NCBI GenBank assembly: GCA_033648345.1
Contig: GCA_033648345.1_4121.1
Source: a phage
Strand: one strand, 5' to 3'
DNA length: 64,000 nucleotides
The translations under genes and the position numbers were made by a program. This document shows positions 1 to 64,000 of this stretch, piece by piece. Below the pieces are notes generated by a model that searched no databases, was not told the origin of the DNA, and worked only from the letters and a program-made list of their open reading frames with translations. Positions within the stretch are counted from its first letter, which is position 1. Every line of letters starts with the position of its first letter.

Positions 1-1
1 A

Positions 2-1027
2 AGTTCAGTAATCAAGAAGATCAATAGTAAATCAAACCAATTACAGGTTAAGAAAAACTATGGCAAAGATCATGATGAATACTTAAGTTCTGGTATCGAA
101 TATACTCCACAGCTTGGTAATGTTATTGATGCTATGCAAAGTGAAGCACAACTTCTAATTGATGATAATAAATTACCACAAGACCCAAAAGAAGCATTTA
201 ATAAAGTACTACAACTTGTGCTCTCGCGTGATGATAGGTATAATGCTCGTGGATTTATTATTAGTATATATAAAAACTCTCAAAAGAAATATCGTACTGT
301 TATGAGTACTTTATATAAAAAATTCATGGATGCATTTGAAAATATTCAAGCTAATAGTTCTGAACATGAAGAAGCACCAGAAGAAGAATTGGGTGTTTCA
401 GTTAATGAAATGAAAACTCTAAGTGACGTAGCTGAGAATTCTAGTTATCTTGAAACCCGCTTGTATGGTCATTCAAGAGATGAAATTACTAAAATTCACT
501 CACAAAGTATTGAACACGGTTGGGAGATGATTGTTACTAAACCATCAGCAAACGGTGATGCAATTATTATTCAGATTAGAAGCGATTCTGAAAATGAACG
601 TAATAAGATGAATTACAAACAGGCTCAAAACTTTGTAGGTTCAGTTGCGAACATGGATTTCACTGTTGATGAAGTTGTAGAATTCCTTGATGAAATTTTA
701 CATATGGATGCAGATGAAGCGAAAGCTGTTAATGGTATTGTTAGTAAGGCAGAGCAATGGGCTGGTATGATCGGGCTAAACTTCGAGAAAACAAATGAAG
801 GATTTAAATTAAACGATACTGAATTTGTGATTGAGCCTTATAGTGGTCGTATGGTAATATCGTCACCACAACTACCAAATATGTATCTAGTTGGTTCAGA
901 TAAAATTATCACCGACATTTTGAAATACATTCTGCGTTTCATGAAAGAGCAGCCAGAAAAATTACTAAAAACATTGAATCAAGATATCTCAATTGTTAAG
1001 ATGAGAAGAGAGTTAGGGAGTTTATAA
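2..1027 (+). CDS. hypothetical protein, 5'-truncated at window edge
   Basis: Frame of ORF 134..1027 has no in-frame stop back to position 2, so the gene begins upstream of the window; its stop overlaps the next start (TAATG). Confidence 0.6.
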
Positions 1028-1821
1028 TGCCAAGTAAAAGTAAAAGCCAAGCGAAATTCTTCGCTGCTGCTGCCCATAATCCTGAATTCGCCAAAAAAGC
1101 AGGGATTTCACAAAGTGCAGCAAAAGAGTGGAATGCAGCAGATGAAAAAGAGGGAAATCTTAAGAAAGGTTCAAAACTCCCTAATAAAGTAAAAGAATCT
1201 AGTATGCGTGGTTTGGTTGATATTGTACAAGATGCAGAATTAGCTGATACAGAAGACAGAACTAGTGATATAATGGATTCATGTGAAGAAGACCATAAAG
1301 AGAAATTGGAAGAAATGCCACAACGTTTCGATAGTTTCCAAGGCCAAGACCGTGACGAGTTCGTTGACAAAACTGCCGAGATGACAGGTAAGCACAACAT
1401 GGTTAAGTTCGCAGAACACAAAGATTATGATGTGTTTATGAATAAGAATGGTACTGGGTTTATTGCCTATGATAAAGCGGGTAAACAGCTTGCTATCGTT
1501 AGTGGACATTTGTCGAATGATGCAGTGGTTGGTGTACCACAAGTGTTTGAGATTTCTGCTACAGCCTCTAAAACTGGTACTAAAGGTATCATCTATAATA
1601 TCTTTATGGATATGGTTTCTCATGGTATTAAAGTACTAAGTGACAGTCTTCACACAGATGATGCAATTAAATTCTGGACCCGATTGATTGGTTCACACCA
1701 AGTCTACATTGTGGGTGGTGGTGAAGTACTGGCTAAGGCTAGTCCAGAGAAGGTTCACAAGTACTGGAGTGATGATGAATTTAGTCCTAGTGCTGAATTA
1801 CAATTACTTCTGGTAAAATAA
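1027..1821 (+). CDS. hypothetical protein; N-terminus [27 protein letters not shown] resembles DUF3008-type motif
   Basis: 264-aa ORF coupled to upstream gene, followed by hairpin/T-tract terminator; domain resemblance is from memory of the family and unverified. Confidence 0.5.
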   Translation: MPSKSKSQAKFFAAAAHNPEFAKKAGISQSAAKEWNAADEKEGNLKKGSKLPNKVKESSMRGLVDIVQDAELADTEDRTSDIMDSCEEDHKEKLEEMPQRFDSFQGQDRDEFVDKTAEMTGKHNMVKFAEHKDYDVFMNKNGTGFIAYDKAGKQLAIVSGHLSNDAVVGVPQVFEISATASKTGTKGIIYNIFMDMVSHGIKVLSDSLHTDDAIKFWTRLIGSHQVYIVGGGEVLAKASPEKVHKYWSDDEFSPSAELQLLLVK

Positions 1822-1827
1822 TAATTG

Positions 1828-1857
1828 TCGGGGCATTTAATGTCCCGATATTTTTTT
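1828..1857 (+). terminator. rho-independent terminator
   Basis: tcggggca-tttaa-tgtcccga hairpin followed by T7 run. Confidence 0.6.
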
Positions 1858-1920
1858 GAGACAAACAAAGCATTGATGATACAATGTTGCATGACAAAGA
1901 GACATTAAAAAGGAATTCAA

Positions 1921-62859: not shown

Positions 62860-62937
62860 CGTTCAAAAAGTCTCTAATAGTATTAAATACTTCTGTACAA
62901 ATAATATGTACAGAAGTATTGCTCGTTAGAGGTTATA

Positions 62938-63303
62938 ATGAAAAAATATATAAAAATGATAATGGTGTTTGTAGTATTCATGCTTTATTCAAGGTTCAGT
63001 ACAGCCGTACCTGCTTACCTTGATTGTATGGGAAACGATGGAACATGGCATGTACTTTCTAATGACCCACAAAATGGAAACAATATTGTCGTAGATAATG
63101 AGGTTTACCGTTTCAGGGCCGAGAGTTTGATTGGGAATAAAAAGGTATCGACATATAAATCAGATGCTGGTATAATAGCAAATGTAATATTGATAGTGGA
63201 CCCCAAGACAAAGGATGGGGATATTTACATAGTCATTTATCAAGATTCGTCGAACAAACGCGATCAGGATATTGATAAATTGAATATTCATTGTGAACTT
63301 TAA
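62938..63303 (+). CDS. secreted hypothetical protein
   Basis: Signal-peptide-like N-terminus. Confidence 0.45.
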   Translation: MKKYIKMIMVFVVFMLYSRFSTAVPAYLDCMGNDGTWHVLSNDPQNGNNIVVDNEVYRFRAESLIGNKKVSTYKSDAGIIANVILIVDPKTKDGDIYIVIYQDSSNKRDQDIDKLNIHCEL

Positions 63304-63313
63304 GGTATAACAA

Positions 63314-63697
63314 ATGATAAACGATGTAATGCTTTATGTATTAATTACTCCGATTCTTATTAACTCAGTAATAACTATTTCAATGGCATTATTTGGTATA
63401 GTAGCAATTGTTTATGCGGTAAGTACTGGAAAGTATACTTTAATTAGTAAGGTTGATTCATGGTTCGCATCTGATAGTGTACCATATTCAGCTAGTATGA
63501 TTACGATTGGTATTCTAATCGTTGCATTTACACTGCACTGTATTGGTTTTATTAATACAAGTATTTTTTCAGTTTTTATTGGTCTATCATTATATCCATC
63601 ACTTTGGTACTTGATTTATGTAACCGATGTTTGGTATAATAACTACAAGCAGTACAAAGTGAAGAAATCCATTTTATCCAAAGGAAACAAATCATGA
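63314..63697 (+). CDS. hypothetical polytopic membrane protein
   Basis: 127 aa, several TM helices. Confidence 0.45.
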   Translation: MINDVMLYVLITPILINSVITISMALFGIVAIVYAVSTGKYTLISKVDSWFASDSVPYSASMITIGILIVAFTLHCIGFINTSIFSVFIGLSLYPSLWYLIYVTDVWYNNYKQYKVKKSILSKGNKS

Positions 63698-63999
63698 AAG
63701 TAATTTTGTTTTTTGTTTGTATGATTATATGTGGTATGTCTTATGCAGAACCATTACCTGGACTAGTCTGTACTGAAGGTGATATTAAACACATTTACCA
63801 AGGTGATAGCGATGACCATACTATCGTTTATATCGATGGTGAAGTGTATAATTTTGTTAAAGAACATACTGTAGGTGACATTAGTTTTACGCAGTACTCG
63901 AATGATACTGATCCCAATATGCTTGCATTTCTTCAAGTTGATGTATATGAAGAAAGTAATGGCGAACAGTATGTTAAACTTGTGATGATGCGTAAGGCA
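63694..63999 (+). CDS. secreted hypothetical protein, 3'-truncated at window edge
   Basis: Signal-peptide-like N-terminus MKVILFFVCMIICGMSYA; ORF runs off the window end. Confidence 0.45.
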   Translation, partial: MKVILFFVCMIICGMSYAEPLPGLVCTEGDIKHIYQGDSDDHTIVYIDGEVYNFVKEHTVGDISFTQYSNDTDPNMLAFLQVDVYEESNGEQYVKLVMMRKA

Positions 64000-64000
64000 G

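Follow-up and report, generated by a model that had tools for sequence, protein, structure and literature searches.

Chi (GCTGGTGG), the uptake signal and DNA uptake sequences (USS/DUS) and the FtsK-orienting polar sequences (KOPS) are over-represented oligomers that are selected on density and lie inside genes at a coding cost. Methylation-sensitive promoters of the Dam/GATC type are known from IS10, P1 cre and dnaA, and T4-type phages carry mobile early-promoter cassettes, the promoter early stem-loops (PeSLs). RpoD-like early promoters have been described for phage CBB (PMC5259590), and cyanobacteria carry the highly iterated palindrome HIP1, GCGATCGC (Robinson 1995; Elhai 2015, PMC4390886; PMC6105098). 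We analysed a stretch of phage DNA of 64,000 nucleotides (assembly GCA_033648345.1, contig GCA_033648345.1_4121.1; 'the window' denotes the whole of it) in which the palindromic hexamer AGTACT recurs from end to end. The window is 97-98% identical to the Asteriusvirus jumbo coliphages vB_Ec-M-J and fEgEco12 of the 121Q/PBECO4 group. By analogy, HIP1 and its variants appear to be the closest known phenomenon. In these phages AGTACT is a DNA-level element that is selectively maintained, specific to one clade, regulated in density and partly embedded in early promoters; that it acts as a maintained recognition tag of double-stranded DNA, the phage counterpart of a highly iterated palindrome, we regard as about an even prospect.

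The window contains 171 exact AGTACT sites (2,670 per Mb, ∼ 2.7 per kb), against 17.7 expected from dinucleotide frequencies (order 1), 34 under an order-2 and 63 under an order-3 Markov model. Under order 3 it ranks first of the 4096 hexamers by over-representation (z = 13.6), and the hexamers ranked second and third, GTACTG and CAGTAC, both overlap it; it thereby has the frequency and rank of HIP-type elements (∼ 1000-2000 per Mb, top word). The 8-bp palindrome CAGTACTG occurs in 41 exact copies, with 0.84 expected from 100 dinucleotide-preserving shuffles (standard deviation 0.75, maximum 3) and 2.2 and 4.9 from the order-2 and order-3 models, while TTCAGTACTG and CAGTACTGAA occur 13 and 15 times. 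An earlier note on this DNA had claimed the enrichment by eye, with at least about 40 copies of CAGTACTG, and had named counts near expectation under a third-order model as the outcome that would speak against it. The exact counts bear the claim out, both words lie far above that expectation, and all 26 of its example positions fall within 12 bp of a real copy.

205..63898: 171 AGTACT sites in a dispersed array; the spacing averages 375 bp and reaches at most 1466 bp.
CAGTACTG, copies 1-14, starting at 4658, 10527, 11269, 12466, 14691, 14901, 15783, 19579, 20688, 21154, 22524, 23509, 24957 and 25571.
CAGTACTG, copies 15-28, starting at 27808, 27866, 30125, 36372, 37760, 39750, 40171, 40549, 41317, 42181, 42958, 43207, 43327 and 44173.
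CAGTACTG, copies 29-41, starting at 45118, 46277, 47126, 51016, 52452, 56188, 58510, 59110, 59964, 60573, 60726, 62072 and 62690.

The sites are spread more evenly than chance predicts. Local density is 7-18 per 4 kb across the whole window, the coefficient of variation (CV) of the spacing is 0.84 compared with 0.99 ± 0.08 (P = 0.014), and the largest gap of 1466 bp compares with 2121 bp expected. The same holds for fEgEco12 (CV 0.86, P = 0.002), where the largest gap is below 2 kb over 210 kb. This ∼ 2-kb ceiling on gaps suggests action at a distance. Other palindromes are purged from the window. GGTACC, CGTACG, CTGCAG, CAGCTG, GCATGC, CCATGG, TGGCCA and many other G/C-containing hexamers have zero copies, GCGC is absent (∼ 56 expected from base frequencies), CGCG occurs 6 times and GATC is at ∼ 0.57-fold. 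Such avoidance fits unmodified DNA exposed to strong pressure from restriction; AGTACT, being over-represented, shows the opposite of avoidance. Phages are well known to rid their genomes of palindromes; one kept at ten times chance, where nearly all other 6-bp palindromes containing G/C have been purged, implies a strong function at the DNA level.

Neither codon usage nor protein composition accounts for the sites. The window genes lie nearly all on the plus strand, and in their frames AGTACT reads as AGT-ACT (S-T) 64 times, as xxA-GTA-CTx (V-L) 53 times and as xAG-TAC-Txx (Y) 28 times, with a further 16 sites in intergenic DNA, where the density is like that in genes. Shuffling synonymous codons with the proteins kept gave 34.7 ± 5.5 genic sites (at most 53 across 300 trials) and shuffling codon order predicted 21.8, compared with 155 observed. 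AGTACT spells 66 of the 118 S-T dipeptides (16.5 expected), and the two most over-represented dipeptides of the window proteome are V-L (172 vs 115 expected) and S-T (118 vs 78 expected). The signal therefore shapes codon choice and amino-acid sequence alike, at a cost to both, and the earlier note was right that it is no codon-pair artefact. Occurrence in all coding frames and in non-coding DNA, unexplained by codon or amino-acid usage, is again what is found for HIP-type elements. The window also encodes two tRNAs for AGY and ACN codons, those inflated by the AGT-ACT (and AGT-ACA) form of the motif, and it is possible that they compensate for the codon bias that the motif imposes.

41338..41427, plus strand: phage tRNA-Ser(gct).
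43777..43850, plus strand: phage tRNA-Thr(tgt).

The precision and symmetry of the motif point to the kind of recognition involved. AGTACT stands at 9.7 times its dinucleotide expectation and its 18 one-base neighbours at 0.4-2.6 times; among WGTACW words in the window it has 171 copies, followed by TGTACA (53), AGTACA (51) and TGTACT (40). Beyond the hexamer a flank logo holds information only at -1 (C, present in 41% of sites, then A) and at +1 (G). In fEgEco12, the left flank matches the reverse complement of the right one across 65 intergenic sites outside promoters (-1 is C in 32 vs 35 of them, and -2 to -4 are rich in T), and this mirror symmetry extends weakly to TTnCAGTACTGnAA, the best form being CAGTACTG; the 8-bp and 12-bp extensions are themselves palindromic. 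Density in fEgEco12 is 5.1 per kb in intergenic and 2.5 per kb in coding DNA, and is equal in plus- and minus-strand genes (2.54 and 2.28 per kb). We read the mirror flanks and exact core as the probable signature of symmetric recognition of double-stranded DNA, with a core precision like that of restriction enzymes.

AGTACT enrichment is found in every RaK2-like jumbo phage sampled, from Escherichia, Klebsiella and Erwinia and in at least three genera. All hexamers were ranked in ph0011, KP13-7 and 14 IMG/VR loci. The counts were as follows.

ph0011: 106 AGTACT vs 11.2 expected, top hexamer.
UE-S1: 90 AGTACT in 50 kb, 1.8 per kb.
Klebsiella phage KP13-7 (Alcyoneusvirus): 82 vs 8.7 expected, top hexamer.
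Erwinia phage pEa_SNUABM_47 (Eneladusvirus): 97 vs 11.2 expected.
IMG/VR loci with a TopoII large subunit at least 69% identical: AGTACT top hexamer in 14 of 14, at 6-11 times expectation.
Four jumbo-phage loci with TopoII 36-41% identical, IMGVR_UViG_3300026302_000005 among them: 0-2 AGTACT, at chance.
Rhizobium phage RHph_I34: 12 vs 5.7 expected, counted among phages without the trait.
T4-like coliphage JS09: 1 vs 5.2 expected, in 23 kb with G+C similar to that of the window.
Coliphage AMO3598: 0 vs 7.8 expected.
E. coli K-12, 50-kb sample: 3 vs 4.9 expected.

The trait is thus specific to the clade and driven neither by host nor by composition; the phage DNA is ∼ 45 times richer in AGTACT than the 50-kb K-12 sample. 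Flank preference varies by subclade (CAGTAC/GTACTG or AAGTAC/GTACTT), which marks the hexamer itself as the conserved unit.

Conservation of single sites was assessed in an alignment of three Asteriusvirus genomes: ph0011 and UE-S1 share 84-87% identity with the window, whose lineage forms the outgroup to the other two. AGTACT is kept in all three at 50% of sites, compared with 32% for all hexamers. Synonymous bases within sites are kept far more often than elsewhere (ACT 90% vs 63%, P = 8e-4; TAC 85-89% vs 53-62%; CAG 100% vs 51-62%), so that purifying selection at synonymous site positions is seen in two frames. In the V-L frame GTA changes faster than elsewhere (kept 50% vs 70%), with lineage-specific differences that are mostly AGTTCT vs AGTACT. 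Between the window and the Klebsiella phage, at a third-position identity of 48%, 11 of 46 sites are shared, approximately as general codon preference predicts and about what a preference for AGTACT at conserved S-T and V-L positions would give. Density is maintained across genera while single sites turn over.

Density is graded along the genome. fEgEco12 carries 673 AGTACT in positions 1-250 kb (2.69 per kb), distributed as listed here, with the termini taken from PMC13070987.

21-kb direct terminal repeat of fEgEco12: 5.4-7.4 AGTACT per kb.
Gene-free first 1.7 kb of fEgEco12: 17 AGTACT.
Early regions of fEgEco12: 3-5 AGTACT per kb.
Replication and structural modules of fEgEco12: 1.2-3 AGTACT per kb.

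Just inside the left terminal repeat of fEgEco12 (PP777464) lie two sharply bounded islands free of AGTACT, at 20,857-26,616 and 29,016-37,647; no other AGTACT-free stretch longer than 2 kb occurs in the related genomes examined. The dense repeat and the empty islands argue against a uniform mutational bias. The same pattern is seen at about 156.4-159.4 kb and 162.4-168.4 kb of 121Q (NC_025447, 81% identical), and the island region is present in 36 of 36 related records. The right terminal repeat has no mirror island adjoining it. A Chi-like signal oriented by the genome end, which predicts an AGTACT-free, TGTACT-rich island there, was rejected. None of the 10 island proteins matched a known function in Pfam or PHROGs.

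Our working model takes AGTACT as a tag whose reader would be a protein that the RaK2-like phages themselves encode, symmetric (dimer-type) and exact in the sequence it recognises. This reader would most probably be an orphan DNA methyltransferase and/or a binding protein for the marked site. The tag may label the DNA of the phage as 'self', with an effect that reaches as far as ∼ 2 kb. Copies that overlap the -35 or adjoin the -10 of early promoters could couple promoter activity to site occupancy or methylation, for example on parental as opposed to replicated DNA. Cognate methylation would allow roughly 1000 AGTACT copies (an extrapolated figure) to be tolerated despite the purge of other palindromes. 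Three things favour the link to methylation. First, restriction-modification enzymes typically show the kind of precision seen at the core hexamer. Second, other palindromes are purged from the genome and AGTACT is avoided by two other coliphages; ∼ 1000 unprotected sites would be a liability. Lastly, methyltransferases are present: a C5 cytosine DNA methyltransferase is encoded in the window, and a Dam-family N6-adenine methyltransferase (PF05869) is found in relatives across the clade, including fEgEco12 (gene g162) and an Erwinia phage. The proposal of the earlier note that AGTACT is a protein binding or modification site is accordingly favoured by the exact hexamer, the symmetric flanks, synonymous selection and clade-wide conservation, with both reader and modification putative.

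26370..28250, plus strand: C5 cytosine DNA methyltransferase open reading frame, 626 aa.

This reading frame is split by an intein (Hint and LAGLIDADG homing-endonuclease domains, roughly residues 77-417). ph0011 and UE-S1 share the 626-aa intein form; in vB_Ec-M-J and fEgEco12-type genomes the gene lacks the intein and encodes 269 aa.

A number of observations weigh against the tag model. Sequence does not reveal which sites the methyltransferases recognise. The unrelated coliphage AMO3598, which has 0 AGTACT, encodes a homologue of the C5 enzyme at 50% identity. A SAM (S-adenosylmethionine) hydrolase is annotated in relatives, without Pfam support; if real, it would work against methylation. 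Among the 113 window proteins Pfam detected neither a ScaI-type endonuclease nor Vsr, and no protein stood out as a helix-turn-helix candidate. The second island (8.6 kb) contains AGTACA 46 times (4.2 expected; 5.3 per kb), all on the coding strand, and the opposite form is near-absent (GTACT occurs once in the stretch). Such an island implies strand-specific reading, which a purely symmetric model of double-stranded DNA does not explain. Finally, that roughly 1000 tags bring a benefit is something we infer.

The island copies of AGTACA fall in all three frames (17, 14 and 12) and in contexts that are those of ordinary sites with the last T replaced by A. They are conserved at 54% in 121Q, compared with 38% for all hexamers, and 0 align with AGTACT. 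Sequencing artefact was rejected as their source, since the independent 121Q genome is alike and the region is present in every related record. The islands would indicate that there are contexts in which the full palindrome does harm and the half-site on one strand is retained. The search for the reader, comprising Pfam for the window proteins, Pfam and PHROGs for the island proteins and Pfam for 10 annotated regulator, DNA-binding or methyltransferase genes, identified no reader; it yielded only the C5 and PF05869 methyltransferases, a sigma70-family factor and homing-type nucleases. The AMO3598 homologue gave no support for a link between AGTACT and the C5 methyltransferase, the comparison being uninformative or negative. 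With 10 restriction enzymes the digestion of fEgEco12 DNA followed prediction (PMC13070987), indicating that there is no global modification.

Among the alternatives, the one that survives best is a non-adaptive drive, in which a methyltransferase-linked repair or gene-conversion ratchet (the Elhai HIP model, or a Dcm/Vsr-type process) saturates the genome with functionless AGTACT. A density of 2,700 per Mb and the even spacing resemble the saturation predicted for a HIP ratchet (PMC4390886), methyltransferases are present, and sites turn over fast with density rather than position conserved. We nevertheless think it unlikely. The products of deamination are near expectation and not depleted (AGTATT 50 observed, 32-54 expected; AATACT 30 observed, 35-37 expected), and genomes differ at the sites in many ways (AGTTCT, GGTTCT, AGTACA, AGTGCT and others), not by a single mismatch class; together these argue against deamination or very-short-patch repair as the drive. 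No Vsr-like protein was found among the 113 proteins of the window, the part scanned, so that neither mark of very-short-patch repair, depleted T:G-derived neighbours or a Vsr-like endonuclease, is seen within it. A ratchet also fits poorly with two old, conserved islands that have zero sites, and with a density that doubles in non-coding DNA and triples in the terminal repeat.

The half-site island lends itself to a second alternative, in which AGUAC(U/A) is an RNA-level element that is bound or cleaved in transcripts (tagging, processing or decay timing) and the palindromy of the DNA is incidental. The coding-strand AGTACA of fEgEco12 and 121Q, spread over three frames, conserved and with TGTACT near-absent, would fit such an element, and because a palindrome reads alike in transcripts of either orientation, arguments from strand cannot exclude RNA. 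The highest densities, however, are reached in non-coding DNA, including the 17 sites of the gene-free first 1.7 kb of fEgEco12; the flanks in non-coding DNA are mirror-symmetric and the 8-bp and 12-bp extensions palindromic; and some sites lie in promoter spacers or upstream of a -35, where they are not transcribed from that promoter. An RNA element of this kind thus appears improbable.

The earlier note had further suggested that AGTACT is part of an early-promoter cassette and might be a promoter-associated element that has spread. The first suggestion is correct for one class of sigma70-like promoters, in which AGTACT fills -19..-14 immediately ahead of G-TATAAT. It does so at 39751, 40172, 58511 and 62473; 40550, 41318 and 42182 are variants, and in some cases (40530 and 41298) an additional copy borders the -35. 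The relevant features of the window are these.

39736..39763, plus strand: sigma70-like promoter TTGACT-N16-TATAAT, with AGTACT 39751-39756 in the spacer at -19..-14, then G-TATAAT.
40157..40184, plus strand: near-identical promoter cassette (TTGACTAAATAGTTCAGTACTGTATAAT), AGTACT 40172-40177.
40530..40563, plus strand: two-site cassette; AGTACT 40530 abuts a -35-like TTGAAT, and AGTACT 40550, 20 bp downstream, is followed by GA-TATAAT.
41298..41331, plus strand: two-site cassette AGTAC-TTGACT-N9-AGTACT-GA-TAAAAT, sites 41298 and 41318, directly upstream of tRNA-Ser(gct).
42182..42195, plus strand: AGTACT-GA-TATAAT, intergenic, the site adjoining the -10 element.
58496..58523, plus strand: promoter TTGACA-N16-TATAAT, AGTACT 58511-58516 in the spacer.
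62458..62485, plus strand: promoter TTGACA-N16-TATAAT, AGTACT 62473-62478 in the spacer.
14687..14715, plus strand: promoter-like TTGACA-N17-TAGAAT (TTGACAGTACTG), AGTACT 14692-14697 overlapping the last base of the -35.
34916..34944, plus strand: terminator-like hairpin (TACCCAGT / ACTGGGTA, then a T run), assigned from context; AGTACT 34926-34931 spans the loop and 3' arm.

About 7-10 window sites thus hold fixed positions in sigma70-like promoters, and three of the cassettes are duplicates (39736, 40157 and 41303). The two-site architecture of 40530..40563 recurs in the terminal repeat of fEgEco12, where ∼ 37 of 138 sites are promoter-linked, 23 abutting a -35 and 18 adjoining a -10. Even so, the spread of an early-promoter cassette through the genome is a very unlikely source of the array. 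Only ∼ 10 of the 171 window sites lie in promoters; over 90% are intragenic, without promoter flanks or any conserved flank beyond ±1, and sites such as that in the hairpin also occupy non-promoter intergenic DNA. Most good sigma70-like promoters of the window lack AGTACT. In the positional check the sites showed no preference for gene starts or ends, and as a whole they lack the fixed placement relative to -35 and -10, upstream of genes, of a sigma70 element. Lastly, sites arise through point substitution (e.g. synonymous GTT → GTA) and not through insertion of a cassette. The interpretation offered by the earlier note is thus supported in part: for binding or modification and for one promoter class, but not for a spreading promoter element.

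The three near-identical early-promoter cassettes (TTGACTAAATAGTTCAGTACTG...; 39736-39763, 40157-40184 and 41303-41331) lie within 1.6 kb, in a region that also carries tRNA genes and a homing endonuclease, and they resemble the mobile promoter cassettes of T4-type phages. A further observation concerns late promoters. The most under-represented hexamer on the plus strand of the window is TATTTA (9 observed vs 50 expected, order 3), the reverse complement of TAAATA. The latter forms the core of ATAAATA, a late promoter of T4-like type that related phages are reported to use (PMC5259590); the scarcity of TATTTA may reflect avoidance of antisense late promoters.

AGTACT is also the centre of the 12-bp site GTGAGTACTCAC of the nucleoid-occlusion factor SlmA (PMC3020112), and cells infected by the related phage Sharanji filament (PMC11895373). 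The array could therefore be imagined to titrate or hijack a host DNA-binding protein, with SlmA as the candidate, and so to block cell division. One near-consensus copy, TTGAGTACTCAC, does lie in intergenic DNA at 56439-56450, one mismatch from GTGAGTACTCAC, and is the only such copy in the window. SlmA, however, requires G1, T2, A4, G5 and a purine at position 3 (GTRAGYRCTYAC; PMC3020112). There is no copy of GTNAGTACTNAC, GT shows no enrichment at -3/-2 (11 of 171), the base at -1 is C and not a purine, and of the flank classes GAGTACTC is the rarest, seen once. With the required flanks absent or disfavoured around AGTACT in the window, we rejected identity with SlmA-binding sites, and host titration retains only a slim chance. 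Two other readings of CAGTACTG were rejected from its sequence: as a LexA box its half-sites are wrongly arranged, and as an extended -10 its TG is out of register.

An artefact of composition, codon usage, amino-acid content or paralogous families has a negligible probability: although one small EEExFxxST paralogue family carries the site at a homologous position, at 24328, 29056, 35917, 40077 and 46506, the observed counts far exceed those of Markov orders 1-3 and of the dinucleotide, synonymous and codon-order shuffles. Intergenic DNA is at least as dense in sites as genes are, conserved replication and structural genes show equal density, and only one site lies in 23 kb of a T4-like coliphage with similar G+C. 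The family consists of small proteins (∼ 130-150 aa) whose C-terminal parts have roughly (T)EEExFxx-S-T in common, AGTACT encoding the homologous S-T.

24328, 29056, 29643, 35917, 40077, 44174, 44550 and 46506: AGTACT sites of the paralogue family, in the C-terminal (T)EEExFxx-S-T motif.

Several further genes of the window were noted. One open reading frame matches the PD-(D/E)XK family PDDEXK_5 in Pfam, and others are listed here.

55133..56098, plus strand: phage sigma70-family factor (regions 2 and 3).
41649..42170, plus strand: HNH/NUMOD4 homing-type endonuclease, adjoining tRNA genes.
49201..50358, minus strand: the only clear minus-strand gene of the window, 385 aa, no Pfam match.

In size and orientation the last of these is like the ∼ 15 tandem minus-strand paralogues annotated as 'chromosome/DNA condensation regulator' at 330-349 kb of fEgEco12.

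Returning to the reading of AGTACT as a maintained recognition tag, we put forward, tentatively and as something we would sooner doubt than assert, that the RaK2-like phages (Asteriusvirus, Alcyoneusvirus and Eneladusvirus) possess a new genome-tagging system. It would comprise ∼ 1000 tags per genome and a clade-encoded reader, would distinguish phage from host DNA and help to time early expression, and would include tag-free islands that keep a half-site. Several phages of this clade are under development for therapy. The trait is common to a clade of 350-kb phages that infect E. coli, Klebsiella, Erwinia and relatives. In the literature consulted, including the papers on CBB, Sharanji and fEgEco12, we found no mention of AGTACT enrichment in these phages. 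If the tag is real, it would bring highly iterated palindromes to viruses for the first time and offer a genetically tractable system for studying a kind of signal whose role in cyanobacteria is unsettled. If it is a mark of self, it would show how a jumbo phage that has neither a nucleus-like compartment nor modified bases separates its DNA from that of the host and schedules early transcription. ScaI-type enzymes or AGTACT-directed tools would cut or mark the phage ∼ every 375 bp and the host ∼ every 17 kb (50-kb K-12 sample).

Compared with HIP1, AGTACT is likewise a short exact palindrome, present at roughly 1000-3000 copies per Mb in all coding frames and in non-coding DNA. It spreads by point substitution, its density and not its position is conserved, and one-off variants are mostly altered at outer positions (NAGTACTN). 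Methyltransferases are present in both cases, and the function of HIP1 is itself unsettled. The carrier differs, being a virus (an Asteriusvirus coliphage) and not a cyanobacterial cell, as does the word, an A+T-rich hexamer or octamer and not a G+C-rich octamer; the cognate methyltransferase of AGTACT is only putative. Unlike HIP1, AGTACT also occurs in early promoters, and its density falls strongly from the terminal repeat through the early to the late regions of the genome. The same applies to its AGTACT-free islands, one of them with a strand-specific half-site, for which we know of no HIP1 counterpart. With Chi, USS/DUS and KOPS the element shares a maintained density and a coding cost, and those signals mark self DNA or act at a distance; they are asymmetric and biased in strand or orientation, whereas AGTACT is palindromic with symmetric flanks and equally dense in both gene orientations, only the AGTACA island of the relatives being polar. 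SlmA sites (GTGAGTACTCAC) have the same central AGTACT and form a distributed set read by a dimeric protein (PMC3020112), but the flanks that SlmA requires (G1, T2, purine at 3) are missing or disfavoured here and the copy number of AGTACT is orders of magnitude higher. As in Dam/GATC promoters, AGTACT over a -35 or -10 could tie promoter activity to the fully, hemi- or unmethylated state; GATC is not enriched tenfold in those systems, and methylation of AGTACT is putative. Like PeSLs and the early promoters of CBB, repeated sigma70-like promoters precede many small genes, and some of the window cassettes are near-identical; AGTACT, however, is not named in the published accounts consulted, and the cassettes hold only ∼ 10% of its sites.

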